From assembly GCA_014382605.1 (NCBI GenBank), contig JACNJM010000159.1, positions 1 to 50,747 on the forward strand: a stretch of 50,747 bases of DNA, written 5' to 3'. Source of the DNA: Anaerolineae bacterium. GTDB taxonomy: Bacteria > Chloroflexota > Anaerolineae > Anaerolineales > UBA11858. Position 1 is the first letter of the stretch, and every line of letters begins with the position of its first letter. Both the position numbers and the translations under genes were made by a program. The notes under the pieces are model-generated. The model ran no database searches. It worked only from the letters and a program-made list of their open reading frames with translations, and was not told the DNA's origin. Below are positions 5,232 to 50,747 of the stretch, in pieces.

Positions 5232-7130
5232 TCATTCTGTGCGTACAAAAATATGAATGGGAGAATTTGCACGGCAGGGAATCATCGGCGGCGTGGGTGA
5301 AGTTTCATCAAAGGCTCCGCTTTCCGCGAAACTTGTTGCGAAGCCACCATATTGCCGCGCTTCAATCAGGATCACATCGGCTTCTTGGAGCCACTTTTCA
5401 GCCAATTCCTCGTTCCACCAGCCGAAACGTTCCAACTCGTCGGCATCGCCGGACAAGCGGTAAGAATAACCATCGTTGATCTGCGCGGGGTAAATCTGCG
5501 CCTCGGGGATATAGAGCAGCGGCACTGCCGATAACCCGCCCCACCAATAAACTTTTGCACCCGCAGGCACAACTTCGGCCAAACGCGCTCCGCCTGCTTC
5601 ATAGGAAGCAATCACATCACCACCACAGTCGCGATCATAGGGTGTCAGGCCAACCAACAGGGTTATCAGCGTGCCTACAAGCAAAAGCGCGGTCAAACGC
5701 GCTACAACCGGAGAGATCGTTTCCCCCTGGAACAACCCCCGACCCAGTTTCTCGCCAAAGCGCCAAATCAGCCATCCAGCCAGCAATCCCAAGCTGACAA
5801 ACCCGACTATGCGCAACATATCAATCGCGTATTCCACCACCTGTGTTTCGCTGATGGCAAATTTATTGGCAAAATAGCCCCATAATTCGGTCGTCCCGGT
5901 CTGGATGCGGAAGGATTTGATACGCGGCACATCCACTTGCATGAGCCGGTAAACAAAACGATTCGAGATCAATTTGCTGCCAAAAATAGGGATCAGCCCG
6001 AAGCTGATCCCTGCCGAGAGGCAAAAGATCAATCCCGCGGGGAGCCAGCGCATCCGTGCGCCGCGCCACGAAGATGCGGCCACAATCACCAGCAATACGC
6101 CCAAGATGGCAAAAAACGATATATAGGCATCCAGGCAGTAGACGCAGTAATTTTTGCCCAACGAAGCCCAAGCATGGAAGGCCCATAAGAGCATAAACAG
6201 CGCCACAAGGAAGGTCGCCGCCCGCATTCGCCATGCCGATTTCCACTGGCTCTTGCGCGGCCACAAGATCAAAGTAGTCAATGCGCCCACAGTAGAAAAA
6301 TAGTGCAGGCGTATGGCCTGGAAGAAACTCAAAATGCGATCGCTAAAACTCGTCTCAGGTTGCCAGTTGGGAATCGCCGCGGGGCGCGCCCACGGTTCGA
6401 GAAACGGGAACAACCCCACAGGCAACCAAGAGGCCCACATGTGTAGAATCTCCGGCCAGAAGAAAGCGTGTCCACCCACAAAAGTCAGCATCCCGACGGC
6501 AAAACTCCACAGACCAACCCGCCAGCCGTTTTCCCATAGAATATAGAGAATTAACAGGGGTAACAGCGGAGCCATATTGATGCGTGTCAGCACCACCAAC
6601 ACAGCTAATGCGGTCCCCAGAAGCAATTGCCACAAACGGCGCTGATTGCCCAGGGTCAACACCAGCACCCAGACGAGCATACAGGCCACCAGACCTTGCG
6701 AAGCCATCACACTATAAACTTTAATCAACTGCACGTTGAACGCAAATAACCCCACTGCTCCTGCCGCCCACCAGCGCCCGCCAATGCGCCGCGCCAACCA
6801 CCAGATGCCCAGCAGCATTAGCAGGCCAAGAAAAACGGCAAAATAACGCCCGGTGCGCAGGCCAGGGCCAAAGATGCGCTGCACGATTCCCGGAATGAGG
6901 AACGAAAACGGCATGTGGTTGGTCCAAAAGCCATAATCCTGATAAGGCGTATAGCGTCCGATGGCAAAGAAATAGCCTTTGAGCAAATACGCGCCTTCAT
7001 CGAGAATCGATGTCTGCGTATGGGCATAAACCCAAATTTGCAGCGCAAAAAGCGCGGCTCCCAACCCTGCCAGCGTTTCAGCCAGCCAGGGGCTGGATAC
7101 CAAACGCTTCCATCGCACCGATGGGTTCAT
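5232..7130 (-). CDS. GT-C fold membrane glycosyltransferase (GT39/ArnT/PMT-like) with C-terminal extracytoplasmic domain
   Basis: More than 10 predicted TM segments, with an early-loop 'LDEGAYLLKG' (a DE motif as in PMT/ArnT). The ATG at 7130 lies 1 nt after the gmd stop codon; the longer track start overlaps gmd. Confidence 0.65.
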   Translation of the reverse strand: MNPSVRWKRLVSSPWLAETLAGLGAALFALQIWVYAHTQTSILDEGAYLLKGYFFAIGRYTPYQDYGFWTNHMPFSFLIPGIVQRIFGPGLRTGRYFAVFLGLLMLLGIWWLARRIGGRWWAAGAVGLFAFNVQLIKVYSVMASQGLVACMLVWVLVLTLGNQRRLWQLLLGTALAVLVVLTRINMAPLLPLLILYILWENGWRVGLWSFAVGMLTFVGGHAFFWPEILHMWASWLPVGLFPFLEPWARPAAIPNWQPETSFSDRILSFFQAIRLHYFSTVGALTTLILWPRKSQWKSAWRMRAATFLVALFMLLWAFHAWASLGKNYCVYCLDAYISFFAILGVLLVIVAASSWRGARMRWLPAGLIFCLSAGISFGLIPIFGSKLISNRFVYRLMQVDVPRIKSFRIQTGTTELWGYFANKFAISETQVVEYAIDMLRIVGFVSLGLLAGWLIWRFGEKLGRGLFQGETISPVVARLTALLLVGTLITLLVGLTPYDRDCGGDVIASYEAGGARLAEVVPAGAKVYWWGGLSAVPLLYIPEAQIYPAQINDGYSYRLSGDADELERFGWWNEELAEKWLQEADVILIEARQYGGFATSFAESGAFDETSPTPPMIPCRANSPIHIFVRTE

Positions 7131-7131
7131 C

Positions 7132-8112
<981 letters not shown>

Positions 8113-13413: not shown

Positions 13414-13430
13414 TAAAAGCAAGATATTCT

Positions 13431-13506
13431 TGAACCGCAAAGACGCAAAGGTCGCTAAGGTTTTCTATTTTTCTCGGCGTTCTTCGCGTCTTTGCGGTGA
13501 AATTTC
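13431..13506. repeat. Family R full copy
   Basis: TGAACCGCAAAGACGCAAAG...loop...CTTCGCGTCTTTGCGGTGAAATTTC. There is a 13-bp perfect stem (13434-13446 with 13486-13498). Confidence 0.7.
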
Positions 13507-14923: not shown

Positions 14924-14935
14924 CAAACATTTTTT

Positions 14936-15011
14936 TACCACAAAGACACGAAGGCACGAAGAAAAACATAAAAAATCCTTTGTGTCTTTGTGCCTTTGCG
15001 GTGAAATTTTT
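14936..15011. repeat. Family R full copy
   Basis: ACCACAAAGACACGAAGGCACGAAG-AAAAACATAAAAAATC-CTTTGTGTCTTTGTGCCTTTGCGGTGAAATTTT. Confidence 0.7.
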
Positions 15012-18561: not shown

Positions 18562-18585
18562 TTACGCCTTCGCAATCAAGATTTC
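18562..18585. repeat. Family R half copy abutting the 18586 palindrome
   Basis: TTACGCCTTCGCAATCAAGATTTC; compare CGCCTTCGCGATGAAATTC at 44946-44964. Confidence 0.35.
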
Positions 18586-18638
18586 GCAAAAAAGGGTGTG
18601 CATGGGGTGCGTCGCACCCCATGCACACCCTTTTTTGC
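18586..18638. terminator. Perfect 26-bp-arm palindrome with A6/T6 flanks (bidirectional-terminator-like) between divergent pcrA and holB
   Basis: GCAAAAAAGGGTGTGCATGGGGTGCG-T-CGCACCCCATGCACACCCTTTTTTGC. Confidence 0.4.
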
Positions 18639-18667
18639 GATTTTCCCTTTCGAGAAAACTATCGAAA

Positions 18668-20435: not shown

Positions 20436-20489
20436 AAAAACTCAAAGGTGTGCCGCGATAAAATGCTCGCGGCACACCTTTGAGTTTTT
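20436..20489 (+). terminator. Intrinsic terminator after the lipoprotein gene
   Basis: AAAAACTCAAAGGTGTGCCGCGA-8 nt-TCGCGGCACACCTTTGAGTTTTT. Confidence 0.75.
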
Positions 20490-27302: not shown

Positions 27303-27328
27303 CTAAACGCCTTCGCAGCGAGAATTCC
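27303..27328. repeat. Family R half copy abutting the 27327 terminator
   Basis: CTAAACGCCTTCGCAGCGAGAATTCC. Confidence 0.35.
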
Positions 27329-27365
27329 GAAAAAAGGTGGGGGCGACGCCCCCACCTTTTTTCGG
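27327..27365 (+). terminator. Intrinsic terminator after the SCP2 gene
   Basis: CCGAAAAAAGGTGGGGGCG-A-CGCCCCCACCTTTTTTCGG. Confidence 0.8.
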
Positions 27366-29283: not shown

Positions 29284-29340
29284 CGAAAAAAATAAGGGTG
29301 GCTGAGGGGCAAAGCCCCTTAGCCACCCTTATTTTTTTCG
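29284..29340 (+). terminator. Intrinsic terminator after the second histidine kinase
   Basis: CGAAAAAAATAAGGGTGGCTGAGGGGC-AAA-GCCCCTTAGCCACCCTTATTTTTTTCG. Confidence 0.8.
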
Positions 29341-37435: not shown

Positions 37436-37466
37436 TCTTTGTGTCTTCGTGCCTTTGTGGTTAAAC
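37436..37466. repeat. Family R half copy overlapping the add stop codon
   Basis: CTTTGTGTCTTCGTGCCTTTGTGGTTAAAC. Confidence 0.45.
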
Positions 37467-39971: not shown

Positions 39972-40007
39972 TTCAATACCCTAACCTGGACAAGCCAGAA
40001 CCAAAAA

Positions 40008-40043
40008 GGTTTCACCACGAAGGCACAAAGAGCGCAAAGTGCC
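40008..40043. repeat. Family R half copy (left-arm type)
   Basis: GGTTTCACCACGAAGGCACAAAGAGCGCAAAGTGCC. Confidence 0.45.
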
Positions 40044-42229: not shown

Positions 42230-42272
42230 CAAAAAAAGGGAGTGTGCTGCGAGCAGCACACTCCCTTTTTTT
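42230..42272. terminator. Bidirectional intrinsic terminator between the convergent ytxH-like and peptidase genes
   Basis: A7-GGGAGTGTGCTGC-gag-GCAGCACACTCCC-T8. Confidence 0.8.
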
Positions 42273-44422: not shown

Positions 44423-46063
44423 TTATTCTTCCCGCAGTAACGCCAACGCATACTCATTCTGATAAATAATTCTGTAACCGGGCAATTCATCGGCATAGGC
44501 ATCACCATAGAATCTTTGCCAGGCGCGCATCTGATCGGGATCAACTGCGGTTTCAATCGCATCAGGTTGGGTGAACTCTAACACATAATTCATTTCCAGC
44601 AACAAAATATCGGGTTGTTTCTCATGGATATAGTCATAAGTTGCCAGCTTCCATTTCATCAGCACATCGTAGTTGGGTTTGGGCGGCACGTAGGCGGTCA
44701 GATCACGGTAGATCGCCAAAGGCTCATCGGCAAGCCCCATCTCGGTTAACCGCGCTTCCACTTCGTGGTAGAAAGCAATACTCTCAGACCGCTCTTCACG
44801 GTAAAGAATATCCGTATAAATTTTGGCATCCTGTTGGAGATACAACCCATATTGGATCACTAATAAAAATAAGAGGATAAATACAAAATCGCGAAGACAC
44901 GAAGAACGTAAAGATTTTTTATTTTGTTTTTCTTCGCGTGCTTCGCGCCTTCGCGATGAAATTCTTTCAGGGAAGAGATGCACCAGCCCCGAAGCAAGCG
45001 GGATTGCCATCGGCAAGAAGTATAGCGGGCGCACGGTTGAGCCGCCCACCGCCAAGAAGTAGGGTAGCGAAAAGGCCAGAATCATCACGTTTGTGAAGCG
45101 GAAGCGCGGTGTGCGCATCCCCTGGATCAGCCCGGCCAGCATCAGCAGCAGCGTAAACCACTGCCCGTAATACGGCCAGATGATGCGTTGTATTTTTTCC
45201 TTTGTGAGATTCCAGTCAGCGTATTGCGTGTAATATCCGGCGCGCGTCTGAAAAATAAGTTGCTGCTGCCGGGCTAGAATTTCTGCCCGGGTTTGAGGAA
45301 TAAGCAGCAACGGATTCGAGATCACCAACCCCAACGCCATCACCGCCACAAAGGAGAAGGCCACCCACAGAGCGCGGCGAAGTTCCAGTTTTTGATCTTT
45401 CAACCCCCAAAGAATATATAGCGGAACCGCCAGTGCAAAAAATGCCCCGGCAAATTTAACGCTCACACCTGCGCCGCACAGAGCCGCAGCAATATAAAAA
45501 TTCCGCCCGAAGCGGAACTCGTCTTTTTGCAGCATATAGAAGATGAGTGTGATCAGCAAAATCGACAGGCTATCGGGATGCCACCAGAGATTATTCAACA
45601 CCGTCGCGGGCAACGCCAACAGAAACGCAAACAGCCCCAGAATTTTCGCAGTGGATTTGCGTTCTGTTTGCAAATCTACCATCAGGGCCACGGAGAAAAT
45701 CACCGGCAGCACGCTGACCAACTGGCGCAACAGCAGCATAATGGTAGCTGAATCTTGCCCCCAGGCTGCCCCTACGAAAAGGCGATAGGGCAGCAGCATG
45801 ATCGCCGAGAACAGATAGAAAGGGTAGCCGTAATCGTAATGTAAATACACCACAAAACGGCGAATCGTCTCAAAAATTGTATCGCCCGGCGTGAGCATCC
45901 GCAAAACATGCTGGTATTGGGCAAACTCATCCTTCTCGAAAATGGAAAGCATATTCCAATCCTGAGCGCCGGTAAAATTGGGGAAGATCATCAGCGAGAA
46001 ATAAATCAGGCCGATGACGAGCATCCCCCAGATGGCAGAACGTGAGAATGTATTTGATTTCAT
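44423..46063 (-). CDS. GT-C fold membrane glycosyltransferase with C-terminal soluble domain; carries an in-frame palindromic-repeat insertion
   Basis: Multi-TM N-terminal 365 aa with the loop 'EKDEFAQY'. Then a repeat-encoded basic loop, one TM, and a soluble domain of about 150 aa. Confidence 0.6.
   Translation of the reverse strand: MKSNTFSRSAIWGMLVIGLIYFSLMIFPNFTGAQDWNMLSIFEKDEFAQYQHVLRMLTPGDTIFETIRRFVVYLHYDYGYPFYLFSAIMLLPYRLFVGAAWGQDSATIMLLLRQLVSVLPVIFSVALMVDLQTERKSTAKILGLFAFLLALPATVLNNLWWHPDSLSILLITLIFYMLQKDEFRFGRNFYIAAALCGAGVSVKFAGAFFALAVPLYILWGLKDQKLELRRALWVAFSFVAVMALGLVISNPLLLIPQTRAEILARQQQLIFQTRAGYYTQYADWNLTKEKIQRIIWPYYGQWFTLLLMLAGLIQGMRTPRFRFTNVMILAFSLPYFLAVGGSTVRPLYFLPMAIPLASGLVHLFPERISSRRREAREEKQNKKSLRSSCLRDFVFILLFLLVIQYGLYLQQDAKIYTDILYREERSESIAFYHEVEARLTEMGLADEPLAIYRDLTAYVPPKPNYDVLMKWKLATYDYIHEKQPDILLLEMNYVLEFTQPDAIETAVDPDQMRAWQRFYGDAYADELPGYRIIYQNEYALALLREE
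44886..44965. repeat. Family R full copy located in-frame inside the GT-C ORF
   Basis: AAATCGCGAAGACACGAAGAACGTAAAG-loop-TCTTCGCGTGCTTCGCGCCTTCGCGATGAAATTC. Confidence 0.7.
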
Positions 46064-46094
46064 AGCAGCGTTTTCAACTACAACCCATAATGCG

Positions 46095-46167
46095 CCACTG
46101 AGAACGCCGAATTCGCGGAGAAAAACTAAGAAAACTTTGCATTCTCCGCGTACTCTGCGGTTTCAGG
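46095..46167. repeat. Family R variant; the right arm forms the last codons and stop of the O-antigen-ligase-like ORF
   Basis: ...CGCGGAGAA-loop-TTCTCCGCG... (9-bp perfect inner stem), ending GCGGTTTCAGG. Confidence 0.45.
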
Positions 46168-47604
46168 ATTCAGCCCAGTTCCAGGGGCGTATACCTGCAC
46201 GCTGGCGGTAATCAGACCGAAAACAACCCACATATTGGGGATAGCAAACGAATCGACTGAAAATCCCACGCCCAGAAAAACGACCAGCGAGAGCAGCCCG
46301 GCCAAGCCCCAGTAACGCGGCTCACGCTCTGGCGATAGCAAAAGATATAGCGTCGCACCCAGCACCGCCACCACAAAAGCCACAAACGCTGCCGAGCCAA
46401 TCAGGCCGGTCTCGGCGAGAATGCGGGCGAACATATTCTTGGGCACCACCAAACGATTACGTCCTTCGGCAGGAGTAAATTTATATACCAATTCCGGGGT
46501 GGGATAAAGCGGGCGATCCGTAAGCGTCTCTTCAAAGTAAAACGTGTAATTACCCAGGCCAATCCCCGTCCAAGGATAATCTTCATAGATGCGGTAAGCG
46601 GTCTCCCAATAGGCTATGCGCTGGCTAACCGCAATATATTGCACATACGAGCCAGTGGCGTTTTCATCGGTCCAATAACTCCAAAGGCGAGAGAAATAGC
46701 GATTACGCGAGCCAAAGGCAAACACTACCGCCAGCAAGACAGCCAGCATCAACCCTACTTGCAACAAACGCCGCGTAATGCCGCGCCAGTTCAGGCTGCG
46801 ACCGGGTTTTCGTCCGCCGCGAAACAAGAAGGCCAGTACTAATTGCAATCCCCACAGCACATAACCGGTACGCGAATAGGTATACACCAGCACAAATGAA
46901 GCCCAGACCAGCAACAACAATTCCACGGTCACAAAGCGCCAACGGCGACGAAAGGCCGAATAGCCCGACATAACAGCGGCAAACAGCCAGGGCATCAGTA
47001 AAAAAGTGATCTGCTCGGCGAACCAGTTGGGTTCATAGGTCATACCAGAGATGCGCGTCTCGAACAGGCCGCGCACCGAGAAGAAGCCCTGCAAATATTC
47101 GATCAGGTCAAAATATTCGGGCGTGTAAAACAGAATATAGCCAATTTGCACACAGCCCCACAGCAAGGCGATGCCAAATCCGGCGTACAACCAGCGCAGG
47201 GCAAAACGCAGTTCTTCAACGGTGCGCGGGATGACGGCCACGGTGATATAAAAAGCTGCGCCCAATAACAGCGTAGCAGTCATACGCACGGCCCGCGAGG
47301 ACACACTGATGCCGATATCCGGATCAATGCCGCGGGTACAGGCCAGGGCAGTACTCGCCAGCGCAACCAGCACAAAAGCCCCCAGCGGCAAAGCCGTGCG
47401 CGGCGTGGAATGCGTGAACAACCGTGGCAGAGTGTAAATCAATAGAAGGACAATTAATGGATAAATAGATAGTGGTCGCACTTCGGTGCGACCACCGACG
47501 CCACCCGGAAAGTAGGGGAAGCTGGTGACCGGTAAAGTGAGTAGAAACAGCGCCCAAAAGATTTTCTGCACTCGTTCCACTCGCTGAATCCAAACCCGTG
47601 GCAC
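46126..47604 (-). CDS. O-antigen ligase/polymerase family (Wzy_C domain) membrane protein
   Basis: About 12 TM segments, with 'YTYSRTGYVLWG' in the Wzy_C-type region. The GTG start overlaps the upstream stop (TAGTG). Confidence 0.7.
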   Translation of the reverse strand: MPRVWIQRVERVQKIFWALFLLTLPVTSFPYFPGGVGGRTEVRPLSIYPLIVLLLIYTLPRLFTHSTPRTALPLGAFVLVALASTALACTRGIDPDIGISVSSRAVRMTATLLLGAAFYITVAVIPRTVEELRFALRWLYAGFGIALLWGCVQIGYILFYTPEYFDLIEYLQGFFSVRGLFETRISGMTYEPNWFAEQITFLLMPWLFAAVMSGYSAFRRRWRFVTVELLLLVWASFVLVYTYSRTGYVLWGLQLVLAFLFRGGRKPGRSLNWRGITRRLLQVGLMLAVLLAVVFAFGSRNRYFSRLWSYWTDENATGSYVQYIAVSQRIAYWETAYRIYEDYPWTGIGLGNYTFYFEETLTDRPLYPTPELVYKFTPAEGRNRLVVPKNMFARILAETGLIGSAAFVAFVVAVLGATLYLLLSPEREPRYWGLAGLLSLVVFLGVGFSVDSFAIPNMWVVFGLITASVQVYAPGTGLNPETAEYAENAKFS

Positions 47605-48653: not shown

Positions 48654-48671
48654 ACAATCTCCAGTGATAAA

Positions 48672-48755
48672 AAATTAACGCAAGAACGCAAAGAAACAAA
48701 GGCGCAGAGATTTTTATGCTTTTCTTTGCGTCTTTGCGTCTTTGCGTTAAATTTC
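48672..48755. repeat. Family R full copy
   Basis: AAATTAACGCAAGAACGCAAAGAAACAAAGGCGCAGAG-loop-TCTTTGCGTCTTTGCGTCTTTGCGTTAAATTTC. Confidence 0.7.
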
Positions 48756-49962: not shown

Positions 49963-50747
49963 TTATCGCAATTGTTGGTAAAGTCGCAAAAGGCGGGCTG
50001 ACACTGTGCTCCAGTCGTAGTCTTGTTCGTAAGCACGGCGGGCGTTGGCAGCGAATTCGGCGTACAAAACCTTATCGAGTTGCAAACATTCCAACGCTTT
50101 AACAAGCTCCGGTCGGTGCCCGTATTCAACAACCAGGCCGCAATTTTCAGCCTGCACAATGCGGTCAATATTCGTATCTGCGGCGACGATGACCGGTTTG
50201 CCCAGCATCATGGCTTCAAAGAGTTTGTTAGGGCTGGCATAACGATGATTGGGAATCGCCGGGTCGTAGAGTGCCAGAACGACATCCGCCGCGGCGGTGA
50301 GGGCTAAAGCACGCTTATACGGGATACGCCCATGCCAGGTGACGTTGGGAAGTTCATCAGACAACGCCAATATTTGATTTTCATCGCCGCCAAACCCGGC
50401 CAGGTCGAGATGCCATTCGGGATGATCGCCAAGCACATTGAGTACATTTAGCAAACCGCGCTCGGTTTGTAAAAGTCCAACATAAACAAGATTTAGTGTT
50501 TTTTTAGCAGAAAAATCACCGCGAATAGGCGAAGAACGCCAAGTTTTTCTCTTTTGTTCTTCCTGGCGCTCTTTGCGTCTTCGCAGTTTCAAAAATTTCA
50601 TTTGAGTTTGGCTTGTTCGAGTTAGCGTATTGTAGTCGTAATCTCTCGGTGTATTCAATACCACAGCTCGATTCTGCGGCAAACGCTCCCCAACCTGCAC
50701 CCAGCGGGATTCGTCGGTAATGATGAGCGCATCTACGCGGCGAATGG
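49963..50747 (-). CDS. Glycosyltransferase family 4, 5'-partial (open to the window edge); carries an in-frame palindromic-repeat insertion in the interdomain linker
   Basis: C-terminal GT-B domain with 'SPNKLFEAMMLGKPVIVAAD'. The frame stays open upstream of the track start through 50747 ('...IRRVDALIITDESRWVQVG'). Confidence 0.8.
   Translation of the reverse strand, partial: IRRVDALIITDESRWVQVGERLPQNRAVVLNTPRDYDYNTLTRTSQTQMKFLKLRRRKERQEEQKRKTWRSSPIRGDFSAKKTLNLVYVGLLQTERGLLNVLNVLGDHPEWHLDLAGFGGDENQILALSDELPNVTWHGRIPYKRALALTAAADVVLALYDPAIPNHRYASPNKLFEAMMLGKPVIVAADTNIDRIVQAENCGLVVEYGHRPELVKALECLQLDKVLYAEFAANARRAYEQDYDWSTVSARLLRLYQQLR
50513..50599. repeat. Family R full copy located in-frame inside the partial GT4 ORF
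   Basis: AAATCACCGCGAATAGGCGAAGAACGCCAAG-loop-TTCTTCCTGGCGCTCTTTGCGTCTTCGCAGTTTCAAAAATTTC. Confidence 0.65.

Follow-up and report, generated by a model that had tools for sequence, protein, structure and literature searches.

Results

The GT-C gene and the element within it

The window, meaning the whole stretch of 50,747 nucleotides analyzed in this study, contains a gene for a glycosyltransferase of the GT-C fold whose reading frame runs through an inverted-repeat element of a family named here family R (Table 1). The ORF translation, which includes '...HLFPERISSRRREAREEKQNKKSLRSSCLRDFVFILLFLLVIQYGLYL...', and the fold of the hairpin confirmed the original prediction that the 546-aa frame reads through a complete element without a stop codon. 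The element had been placed at 44886–44965, and its family extent, stretched to 84 bases by family-consensus bases on the flanks, is in close agreement. The arms of the inverted repeat (44888–44914 and 44931–44957) are 27 nt each, are 81% complementary and enclose an A/T loop of 16 nt. The RNA fold of this hairpin reached −35.8 kcal/mol compared with −17.8 ± 3.3 kcal/mol for shuffled sequences (z = −5.47), and none of the 200 shuffles folded as well. On the coding strand, a purine-rich arm (CGCGAAG three times) is followed by an A-rich loop and a pyrimidine-rich arm (CTTYGYG three times), running from the third base of codon 369 to codon 392. These 24 codons provide the peptide SSRRREAREEKQNKKSLRSSCLRD (residues 369–392).

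As had been proposed, the segment genuinely belongs to a family of dispersed repeats. The covariance model R1, built from 13 metagenome copies with none taken from the window, scored the element at 68.7 bits (E = 7e-18). Both 33-nt modules that characterize the family are present and inverted: the 5' module on the coding strand, GAATTTCATCGCGAAGGCGCGAAGCACGCGAAG, matches 31 of the 33 consensus positions by eye, and the 3' module retains its octamers, with the terminal GGTGAAATTT degenerated to GATTTTGTATTT.

Table 1. Position of the genes and repeat copies described in the window.
Feature	Position	Strand	Evidence
GT-C fold glycosyltransferase gene, 546 aa	44423..46063	-	ORF list, homologues, AlphaFold, Foldseek
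Family-R inverted-repeat element, in frame in the GT-C gene	44881..44964	-	Covariance model R1, hairpin arms, fold energy
Copy that overlaps the Wzy_C (O-antigen ligase-like) gene 46126–47604 at its 3' end	46087..46168	-	R1 25.7 bits, E = 4.4e-5; inverted repeat I8
Second in-frame copy, interdomain linker of a GT4 glycosyltransferase gene	50511..50594	-	R1 47.4 bits, E = 1.5e-11
Intergenic copy between two co-directional glycan-cluster genes	48670..48755		R1 44.2 bits
Intergenic copy, best family-model match	13427..13505		R1 75.2 bits, E = 8e-20
Intergenic copy	14930..15009		R1 73.8 bits, E = 2e-19
Solo half-element, single 33-nt module, intergenic	37437..37465		Motif and relaxed-module scans
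Solo half-element, opposite in orientation to 37437..37465, intergenic	40007..40042		Motif and relaxed-module scans

A strong hairpin followed by a U-rich stretch (..CGCGAUUUUGUAUUUAU..) could also act as an internal intrinsic terminator or attenuator that ends much of the transcript inside the gene. A T-rich run does follow the stem on the coding strand, and a consensus scan flagged a small sub-hairpin with a tail at 44902–44889. However, the scan returned 6 terminator-like sites compared with 2.6 ± 1.9 in shuffles, which is not significant, and the flagged stem has 5 pairs only, against 27 pairs and a 16-nt loop in the full stem. The T-rich run consists of codons for hydrophobic TM residues (DFVFILLF), other family-R copies have no such run, and the real terminators of this genome are different, being AAAAAGGG..CCCTTTTT palindromes. 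Terminator function is therefore highly unlikely.

Structure and homologues of the host protein

In the AlphaFold model of the 546-aa protein (mean pLDDT 88), a multi-TM domain is followed by a variable linker, a last TM helix (383–420) and a C-terminal alpha/beta domain (427–544), which reproduces the single TM helix and soluble domain of about 150 aa foreseen for the C-terminal side. The pLDDT falls below 50 only at residues 1–4 and at 368–385, between helices 350–363 and 383–420. The element residues make up most of this second low-confidence stretch, so that the structure prediction agrees with the earlier expectation that the segment would be disordered.

Neither a Pfam search nor a PDB profile search matched the protein at the sequence level; therefore, the GT-C assignment was settled by structure prediction and Foldseek, which supported the predicted GT-C domain at the level of the fold. 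Against the PDB, the model matched ALG12 (9s6t, E = 1.7e-7) and ArnT (5f15, E = 1e-6), and further matches were STT3, AglB, PglB, PimE, Pmt4 and Emb with TM-scores of ~0.5 (E from 1.7e-7 to 2.4e-4 for ALG12, ArnT, STT3, AglB and PglB). Residues E43, D45 and E46 (FEKDEFAQ) in the first extracytoplasmic loop are invariant in 27 aligned sequences, and some homologues carry PF13231, PF02366 or PF09594. The C-terminal domain of GT-C enzymes lies outside the cytoplasm, and the model places the element loop between the penultimate and last TM helices, where it is probably cytoplasmic. The loop-containing stretch has 10 K+R and 4 D+E, and the C-terminal domain has 13 K+R and 27 D+E. The other GT-C candidate of the window, ORF 5232–7169, reached 25.7 bits for PMT_2, just under the Pfam cutoff of 26.1; its product showed no similarity to the 546-aa protein in BLASTP, and the R1 scan found no repeat copy in it, in line with its earlier description as repeat-free.

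Because the element sits between two structural units, the original prediction had offered as an alternative that it fused two formerly separate genes, one for a GT-C membrane domain and one for a TM-plus-soluble-domain protein, into a single ORF. This position is the only point in favor of a fusion. Of 165 homologues, mostly of 530–560 aa, ~120 are full-length (34–85% identity, covering 93–100% of the query), and the linker, the last TM helix and the C-terminal domain are present in every aligned homologue. A single ORF contains both parts in repeat-free homologues with identities as low as 34%, and cultured Anaerolineae (Levilinea, Leptolinea, Ornatilinea and Flexilinea) have both domains in an ORF of ~530–560 aa. 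These data refute the fusion, whose probability we regard as practically nil.

Orthologous copies and the repeat-free sister clade

Throughout the protein family, neither the length nor the sequence of the linker between the TM domain and the last TM helix is constant. At the same linker site, octamer arrays are found in the window and in two orthologous loci, L001 and L003, where the linker is 42–45 residues long (42 in the window protein), compared with 37 residues in the sister clade (57–63% identity, loci L006–L016). The sister-clade linker is conserved ('ERISFGxxVWRQxNLQ..') and contains neither the octamer motif nor an R1 match. The suggested search of orthologues for an empty site was thus answered in part: the sister clade lacks the repeat, but a different linker of ~19–22 residues stands at the site, which represents a replacement and not a clean gap, and no exact empty site was found among the orthologues. 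The 24 element codons stand in place of ~19 ancestral linker codons. As the net gain in length is no more than +5 to +8 residues relative to the sister clade, any insertion must have been accompanied by a deletion or replacement.

The copies in L001 and L003 have decayed, scoring 16.5 and 15 bits with R1 compared with 68.7 bits in the window. DNA identity among the orthologues is 57–63% in the element region versus 81–85% in the rest of the gene, and the three copies encode unrelated peptides; the conservation of the segment at the protein level that would have spoken against an insertion was thus not seen. A net positive charge of the segment is kept in all three lineages, whereas the sister-clade linker is much less basic.

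These copies also bear on the reading that the open frame is an artefact or belongs to a dead gene, either because mis-assembly across the repeat created the frame or because a pseudogene is still open by chance. Repeats are classic sites of mis-assembly, and the contig of a related NCBI MAG (L206) stops within the GT-C gene, after codon 159. However, the independent cluster P0001, with three contigs from other assemblies, carries the same segment with 2 aa differences over the shared 509 aa, and the segment is therefore not an assembly error. The frames of L001 and L003 are open through their own diverged copies, and the downstream C-terminal domain is highly conserved in the alignment, with invariant residues through Y519. 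An artefact or pseudogene is thus barely credible.

The repeat family and its other copies

Two inverted 33-nt modules make up the family-R unit, with a short loop rich in A/T between them. Each module is formed by AAATTTCACC followed by three CRCRAAG octamers, and the module ends read AAATTTCACC and GGTGAAATTT. The arm octamers are in tandem and vary only by transitions. Since the purine arm contains no T and A is almost absent from the pyrimidine arm, the arms are unable to form stop codons, and 2.9 of the six frames per element are open compared with 1.2 in shuffles. The spacing of module pairs is 59–610 nt, except for four longer pairs, and the mid-size elements (160–190 nt) have no conserved core, only nested arrays of other short units. 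Among ~124 metagenome copies, 105 lie outside long ORFs. The remaining 19 lie within long ORFs; of these, the nine loci whose ORFs reach at least 250 aa were inspected, and in each the ORF looked like a spurious high-GC frame or the element was located upstream of the likely true start, so that these genic copies were set aside.

The 33-nt module is almost identical in Chloroflexota, Verrucomicrobiota and candidate division WOR-3, and related modules bracket GxxExxY genes in Bacteroidota, Gemmatimonadota, Pseudomonadota and Spirochaetota. The genes between inverted modules belong to the GxxExxY / PDDEXK_3 family (TIGR04256, E = 7e-43; PF13366, E = 7e-41). GxxExxY proteins are abundant, and to our knowledge their function is not known. 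The 56 kb of sequence available for this organism showed no gene of the GxxExxY family.

No consistent direct repeat was found at the element ends as a target-site duplication. Rfam gave no match at the gathering threshold in the window or in 14 related loci, and at E ≤ 10 it gave only chance miRNA-like hairpins at the GT-C locus. BLASTN of the consensus element against plasmids gave no match, possibly owing to low-complexity masking. Two copies end in GTTAAAT or GTTAAAC, which prompted an attC/integron reading; this was rejected on inspection, as most copies share the end GGTGAAATTT and the octamer arms bear no likeness to attC. A likeness to a parS half-site (TTTCAC) was dropped as unsupported.

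Six full copies of the family lie in the window, where the octamer motif YTTYGYGNYTTYGYG occurs 19 times compared with 2.0 expected. The GT4 gene with the second in-frame copy runs from 49963 beyond the window end; the copy encodes ..MKFLKLRRRKERQEEQKRKTWRSSPIRG.. and leaves the frame open. In the full protein (P0121, 409 aa), the segment faces a clean gap in 12 aligned orthologues of 373–382 aa, although the filled and empty sites are too diverged for defining the junctions. A third in-frame copy was found just outside the window, in a 726-aa GT39 gene (L206, 2715–2794; R1 65.7 bits), and the loop of the sister clade at this site is shorter. At the 3' end of the Wzy_C gene, the element takes in the final ~14 codons (..ETAEYAENAKFS) together with the stop codon; this site has a similar copy in L003, a different copy in L001 and none in L004. 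The intergenic copy of the glycan cluster is conserved in position in L001 (3286–3380, 39 bits) and L004 (3452–3521, 31 bits).

Discussion

This study provided evidence that the segment in the GT-C gene is likely to be an old insertion of a dispersed inverted-repeat element, tolerated as a disordered basic loop and not adapted. This agrees with the original suggestion that an intergenic-type element inserted into the gene and is tolerated as a positively charged loop, given its membership of the family, the hypervariable linker and the modelled disorder. Based on the orthologues, a non-autonomous, ORF-less family-R copy would have entered the linker-coding part of the GT-C gene in the ancestor shared by the members of a small Anaerolineales clade. 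The event would have exchanged ~19 linker codons for 24 element codons with the frame kept, and the element may have persisted from then on as a translated loop, basic and disordered, that links the penultimate TM helix to the last one. The element appears to be tolerable because linker length and sequence can change freely within the protein family, because the arms cannot form stop codons, and because selection preserves the frame for the TM helix and C-terminal domain that lie downstream. Insertion appears to be the mechanism rather than an origin in place, and the element seems to be neutral.

The neutrality needs to be worded with care. The window copy is far better preserved than its orthologues, which counts against neutral drift, and its hairpin could have been maintained, or renewed by conversion from another copy, instead of drifting neutrally. 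As the positive charge is kept in three lineages, there is also room for weak selection on charge. These points, together with the location of the hairpin immediately 5' of the codons of the last TM helix, are in favor of the alternative that the segment was exapted: the basic peptide would set the topology of the last TM helix in accordance with the positive-inside rule, or the mRNA hairpin of −36 kcal/mol would be a translational pause or RNA-processing site just before this helix. Related ORF-bearing cassettes form long stems like the 23S rRNA intervening sequences cut by RNase III (PMC11270868), which would suit such processing. Nevertheless, the peptide is not conserved in the three orthologues, the segment DNA evolves faster than its flanks, the other two copies have decayed to 15–16 bits, and the repeat-free sister clade does with a much less basic linker. 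In addition, in-frame copies in two unrelated glycosyltransferases argue for a general tolerance of loops and not for a specific function. Exaptation, which the original prediction had also offered, is thus not borne out and is unlikely.

As to its kind, family R is REPIN- or MITE-like. By analogy with REPINs, which are mobilized by RAYTs, we hypothesize only that family R might be mobilized by the GxxExxY PD-(D/E)XK nuclease. More broadly, and with considerable doubt, there may be an undescribed cross-phylum element of which family R is the ORF-less miniature and whose full form would be a GxxExxY nuclease gene bracketed by two inverted 33-nt modules. Such a partnership would resemble that of REPINs and RAYTs with a different nuclease fold, and the miniatures would have entered glycosyltransferase genes of one Anaerolineales lineage repeatedly and in frame. 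In the literature, we found no paper describing family R, nor one describing a GxxExxY / PF13366 / TIGR04256 cassette. If the cross-phylum reading is true, the Anaerolineales lineage would join Rickettsia in having recurrent protein-coding palindromes.

The GT-C gene clearly illustrates how a selfish hairpin repeat is carried within a protein, and it comes with comparative evidence that is usually lacking, namely a sister clade free of the repeat, orthologous copies in decay and a model of the structure. Recurrent translated palindromes are usually exemplified by Rickettsia; recurrent in-frame palindromes are now shown in a lineage of free-living Chloroflexota. The T-free and A-free arms offer a simple compositional reason for the unusual ORF compatibility of the repeat. 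Moreover, the link of GxxExxY genes to a dispersed hairpin repeat provides a testable idea of GxxExxY function.

Comparison with known systems

The original prediction held that translated palindromic repeats are rare. This requires qualification: the phenomenon is already known from the Rickettsia palindromic elements (RPEs) and from in-frame MITEs (review PMC10969869), and in this organism they recur, as ~56 kb contain three strong copies that lie in frame, each in a different glycosyltransferase gene.

Family R resembles the REPIN–RAYT system (Bertels and Rainey 2011, PMC3116915; PMC3337134) in its hairpin unit of two inverted short repeats around a spacer, in its mostly extragenic copies, and in the presence of a small nuclease-type gene flanked by the same repeats in inverted orientation. 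In contrast, the flanked gene is GxxExxY / PDDEXK_3 and not an HUH tyrosine transposase, and no RAYT (HUH Y1 transposase) gene was seen among the genes found between inverted modules. REP palindromes have a GTAG or CGTC tetranucleotide tag at one end (PMC3733652), which is absent from the family-R module ends, and REP sequences are lineage-specific, whereas the 33-nt module is all but identical from one phylum to the next.

MITEs with in-frame genic insertions include BOX, ERIC, QMITE1 and the Anabaena MITEs (review PMC10969869). Family R shares with MITEs the terminal inverted repeats, the small size (59–600 nt), the variable core, the lack of a transposase and the occasional in-frame fusion with host ORFs. 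Unlike in MITEs, neither a target-site duplication nor a parent IS with a classical transposase was found, and the arms are tandem octamers that vary only by transitions.

The 23S rRNA intervening sequences consist of a small ORF in a long inverted-repeat stem that is removed by RNase III at the RNA level (PMC11270868). The common features are a long inverted-repeat stem around a small ORF and its tolerance in a transcribed, essential gene. The stems of the intervening sequences are excised, whereas the element in the GT-C gene, judging from its open frame, would be translated; their ORF family is 23S_rRNA_IVP, as opposed to GxxExxY in the relatives of family R.

The RPEs, in the account of Ogata et al. 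(2000, 2002) given by the review PMC10969869, are protein-coding palindromes located in frame in genes. Compared with the published RPE descriptions, family R is set apart by its octamer-array structure, its apparently unrelated sequence and its size (~80 nt versus ~150 nt). Each RPE family encodes a conserved peptide, whereas the family-R peptides are not conserved; most family-R copies are intergenic, and the host is a free-living member of the Chloroflexota and not an obligate intracellular alphaproteobacterium. Both are dispersed palindromes that recur in unrelated protein-coding genes, in frame, and are translated (for family R, would be translated) where the fold tolerates them, and both have orthologues without the segment, as a clean gap for the GT4 copy and as a replacement for the GT-C copy. 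Given its different, octamer-based structure, family R is treated here as an analogue of the RPEs and not as a member.

Results

A complete inverted-repeat element lies in-frame within the GT-C glycosyltransferase gene, and this part of the original prediction proved real and statistically solid. The two arms of the element (27 nt each, 81% complementary) enclose an A/T loop of 16 nt, and the folding energy of the coding strand is -35.8 kcal/mol compared with -17.8 ± 3.3 kcal/mol for shuffled versions (z = -5.47; 0 of 200 shuffles as stable). Three octamers in tandem make up each arm, with CGCGAAGN in the 5' arm of the coding strand and NCTTYGYG in the 3' arm. The window contains 19 occurrences of the YTTYGYGNYTTYGYG motif, where 2.0 would be expected. 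Since T is missing from the purine arm and A is nearly missing from the pyrimidine arm, neither arm can supply a stop codon in any frame; among 23 elements, 2.9 of 6 frames per element were open, compared with 1.2 in shuffled versions.

Positions of the elements, genes and cassettes described in the text
Feature	Sequence	Position	Strand	Remarks
GT-C glycosyltransferase ORF	window	44423–46063	minus	546 aa; translation includes ...HLFPERISSRRREAREEKQNKKSLRSSCLRDFVFILLFLLVIQYGLYL...
Family-R copy in GT-C ORF	window	44881–44964		third base of codon 369 to codon 392; arms 44888–44914 and 44931–44957
Family-R hairpins resembling the GT-C copy	window	13427–13505; 14930–15009; 46087–46168; 48670–48755; 50511–50594
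Family-R half-elements	window	about 37437–37465; 40007–40042
Second in-frame copy	window	50511–50594	minus	GT4 gene, 49963 to beyond 50747 (window end)
Third in-frame copy	L206	2715–2794		~3 kb past window right end; 65.7 bits; 726-aa GT39/PMT_2 gene
Fourth in-frame copy, weaker	L206	2089–2163		same 726-aa gene; peptide ..HQDTETRRNTFKIFLCSFVA..
Orthologous GT-C copies	L001; L003	7099–7191; 2939–2996
Orthologous GT4 copy	L001	1485–1552
Palindromes AAAAAAGGG...CCCTTTTTT	window	18584–18640; 20436–20489; 27327–27365; 29284–29340; 42231–42272		at gene ends
GxxExxY genes, metagenome	L133; L138; L144; L098; L193	393–885; 9594–10085; 2995–3603
GxxExxY gene, plasmid	Bacteroides finegoldii			TTCACC + CRCRGAGGA x3, inverted, both sides
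GxxExxY gene, plasmid	Bernardetia			arrays on both sides
GxxExxY gene, plasmid	Treponema saccharophilum			11-nt inverted repeat ACACGGATTCG / CGAATCCGTGT, both sides
GxxExxY gene, plasmid	Gemmatirosa			complete hairpin immediately downstream
GxxExxY gene, plasmid	Sphingomonas			module directly upstream

As an independent test, public metagenome contigs were scanned for the conserved 5' junction AAATTTCACCRCRAAGRCRCRAAG, which was found in at least 120 contigs with GC contents of 0.39 to 0.71. Position frequencies of 111 unique metagenome copies define a sharply bounded module of 33 nt, AAATTTCACC-RCRAAG-R-CRCRAAG-NA-CRCRAAG, beyond which they reveal no conservation. The modules nearly always form convergent inverted pairs spaced 59–610 nt apart, except for four longer pairs at 955–2190 nt. 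Minimal hairpins of ~60–110 nt, like the window copies, form the most frequent class. The covariance model R1, derived only from 13 metagenome hairpins with the window genome excluded, scored 68.7 bits (E = 7e-18) at the GT-C copy and 75 to 26 bits at the remaining five window copies. As this model was naive to the window genome, the membership of the GT-C element in family R is established. The window, the GT-C locus and the related loci gave no match to Rfam families.

Octamer variation in the window and loci copies is almost wholly by transitions at two fixed positions, where C-R-C-R-A-A-G pairs with C-T-T-Y-G-Y-G, and the same variant tends to occupy both arms of one element. This pattern would be compatible with G-U-tolerant RNA pairing or with arm-to-arm copying. 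Mid-size elements (140–300 nt; metagenome loci L085–L204, e.g., L113, L119, L155, L151, L091 and L087) have no conserved core and carry nested inner inverted arrays built from further short tandem units (AACAGRG, ACAGGAT, GGCAAAG and CGCAGAT), giving one long composite hairpin. Between 15 and 37 kb of the window, where the larger ORFs are mostly on the plus strand, there are no family-R copies. A separate class of perfect or near-perfect palindromes at gene ends looks like bidirectional intrinsic terminators, distinct from family R.

Concerning the host protein, neither Pfam nor a sequence-profile search of the PDB gave a match to the 546-aa sequence. Its 165 homologues, mainly from Anaerolineae, mostly have 530–560 aa at 93–100% query coverage, and some contain PMT_2, PMT or GT87 domains. 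The AlphaFold model, built from a 27-sequence alignment, has a mean pLDDT of 88, and its top Foldseek matches in the PDB are all GT-C enzymes (ALG12, ArnT, STT3, AglB, PglB, PimE, Pmt4 and Emb). Invariant acidic residues are expected in the first, catalytic loop of GT-C enzymes, and E43, D45 and E46 are invariant there. The predicted GT-C assignment is thus borne out at the level of the fold.

The possibility that the repeat had fused two formerly separate ORFs is refuted, since all full-length homologues hold the membrane domain, linker, last TM helix and C-terminal domain within a single ORF, including the repeat-free proteins of cultured Levilinea, Leptolinea, Ornatilinea and Flexilinea at 34–45% identity. 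From the conserved HLFP motif to the invariant Q404, the family varies in sequence and in length (28 to 45 residues). The syntenic sister clade (L006–L016; 57–63% identity) has a conserved linker of 37 residues, ERISFGxxVWRQxNLQ..., without an octamer motif or an R1 match. Octamer arrays occupy exactly the same linker site, with 42–45 residues, in the window and its closest relatives L001 (85% identity) and L003 (81%). On visual comparison, a shared 3' arm (TTCTTCGTGTCT) can be recognised in all three, and the central parts are alike in L001 and L003; therefore, the simplest reading would be one insertion in their common ancestor.

The repeat is absent from the sister clade, but the linker there is a different one. 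The GT-C copy is not the product of a clean insertion, as its 24 codons stand in place of about 19 ancestral linker codons, leaving no exact empty site. The ERIS codons 366–369 (GAAAGAATTTCA; 44957–44968) overlap the module terminus (GAATTTCA), yet the sister clade, which has no repeat, conserves them as well (GAGCGGATTTCT). This suggests that microhomology or a preferred ATTTC target may have set the insertion site.

Several data bear on whether the segment is tolerated or exapted. The peptides of the three orthologous segments (SSRRREAREEKQNKKSLRSSCLRD, NSRGATENTKSSSVALMEKLRILRVS and HHGTLKGTSDTKNTEKLFVLLVRKLRVF) are unrelated, the element DNA is 57–63% identical among orthologues compared with 81–85% for the remaining gene, and decay has brought the orthologous GT-C copies down to 16.5 and 15 bits. 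In the AlphaFold model, pLDDT falls below 50 only at the first four residues and at 368–385, and the latter stretch lies within and just before the element-coded residues 369–392. The loop-containing stretch is strongly basic (10 K+R, 4 D+E) whereas the C-terminal domain, which in GT-C enzymes is usually outside, is acidic (13 K+R, 27 D+E); we infer from this that the loop is cytoplasmic. These data fit a tolerated spacer in a hypervariable linker, and the insertion-and-tolerance reading is well supported, whereas exaptation is not supported.

Some room is left for a function of the segment, as its net positive charge is kept in 3 of 3 lineages and the window copy is preserved much better than its orthologues. 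The two genic window copies score 69 bits (GT-C) and 47 bits (GT4) compared with 15–22 bits for the orthologous genic copies, while the intergenic orthologous copies score alike (44 and 26 bits in the window, 39 and 28 in L001). Renewal by conversion, or maintenance in the lineage, may possibly account for the better genic copies of the window organism.

The GT-C gene is not the only one with a translated copy. The full GT4 protein P0121 (409 aa, NCBI-annotated; L206, contig JADHTL010000061.1 of the Anaerolineales MAG GCA_016776485.1) is 100% identical to the window across the 260 aa encoded there. Its interdomain linker contains ..MKFLKLRRRKERQEEQKRKTWRSSPIRG.. where 12 aligned orthologues of 373–382 aa have a clean gap, and L001 and L004 carry decayed copies at this site. 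Another GT4 orthologue, P0125, has a different, longer insertion, ..VDLPRRDHTDRGAITGIFFHSARLANSAV.., in the same linker (alignment columns ~200–250), which thus seems to be a repeated landing site. The third copy encodes a peptide between TM helices, ..FTAETRRAQSFFAIPSRTLRLCGSF.. (also given as ..TAETRRAQSFFAIPSRTLRLCGS..), and the sister-clade GT39/PMT_2 protein is shorter at the positions of both L206 copies. Further, the Wzy_C (O-antigen ligase-like) gene 46126–47604 terminates within the copy at 46087–46168, which contributes its final ~14 codons and its stop codon; at this spot L001 has a different copy and L004 none.

Altogether, 3 of 7 strong copies within about 56 kb are fully translated. 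Among about 120 metagenome loci, the long ORFs inspected held no convincing genic copy, and about 600 kb of this locus from 68 other Anaerolineae species held essentially no family-R copies. This difference indicates that the family is patchy and has expanded in the window lineage. A gene cluster for cell-envelope glycan occupies the region of 44–50.7 kb (GT4, GT4, unknown, Wzy_C, GT-C, InhA-like MAM protease and LytR_cpsA_psr) and is syntenic with L001 and L004.

Discussion

Translated palindromic repeats are already known as RPEs and in-frame MITEs (PMC10969869). The present case gains interest because three glycosyltransferase genes carry such copies and because the parent family is cross-phylum and apparently undescribed. 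Exact-sequence look-ups placed organisms with the AAATTTCACC variant in Verrucomicrobiota/Chthoniobacterales and candidate division WOR-3, and the window belongs to Chloroflexota.

In the metagenome loci, 5 of 5 GxxExxY genes (TIGR04256, E about 1e-43; PF13366 PDDEXK_3) lie between or adjoining modules; the product is a PD-(D/E)XK-like protein of about 125 aa, and the genes are flanked by inverted octamer-array modules. Because these loci had been chosen for having modules, plasmid records picked by protein similarity alone (L207–L211) were examined as an unbiased sample, and there too 5 of 5 GxxExxY genes adjoin such arrays or similar inverted repeats. The cassettes, often wedged among housekeeping genes (e.g., fabD-GxxExxY-fabG), have carriers including Verrucomicrobiota, Bacteroidota, Gemmatimonadota, Alphaproteobacteria and Spirochaetota. 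No GxxExxY gene was found in the available sequence from the window organism, and a literature search found no published account of the cassettes. We hypothesise that GxxExxY might mobilise family R. Although no RAYT, the hallmark of REPIN-RAYT systems, was found and family R lacks their GTAG/CGTC tag (PMC3733652), the arrangement resembles these systems in having a small nuclease-fold gene within inverted repeats together with many ORF-less hairpin doublets (PMC3116915, PMC3337134).
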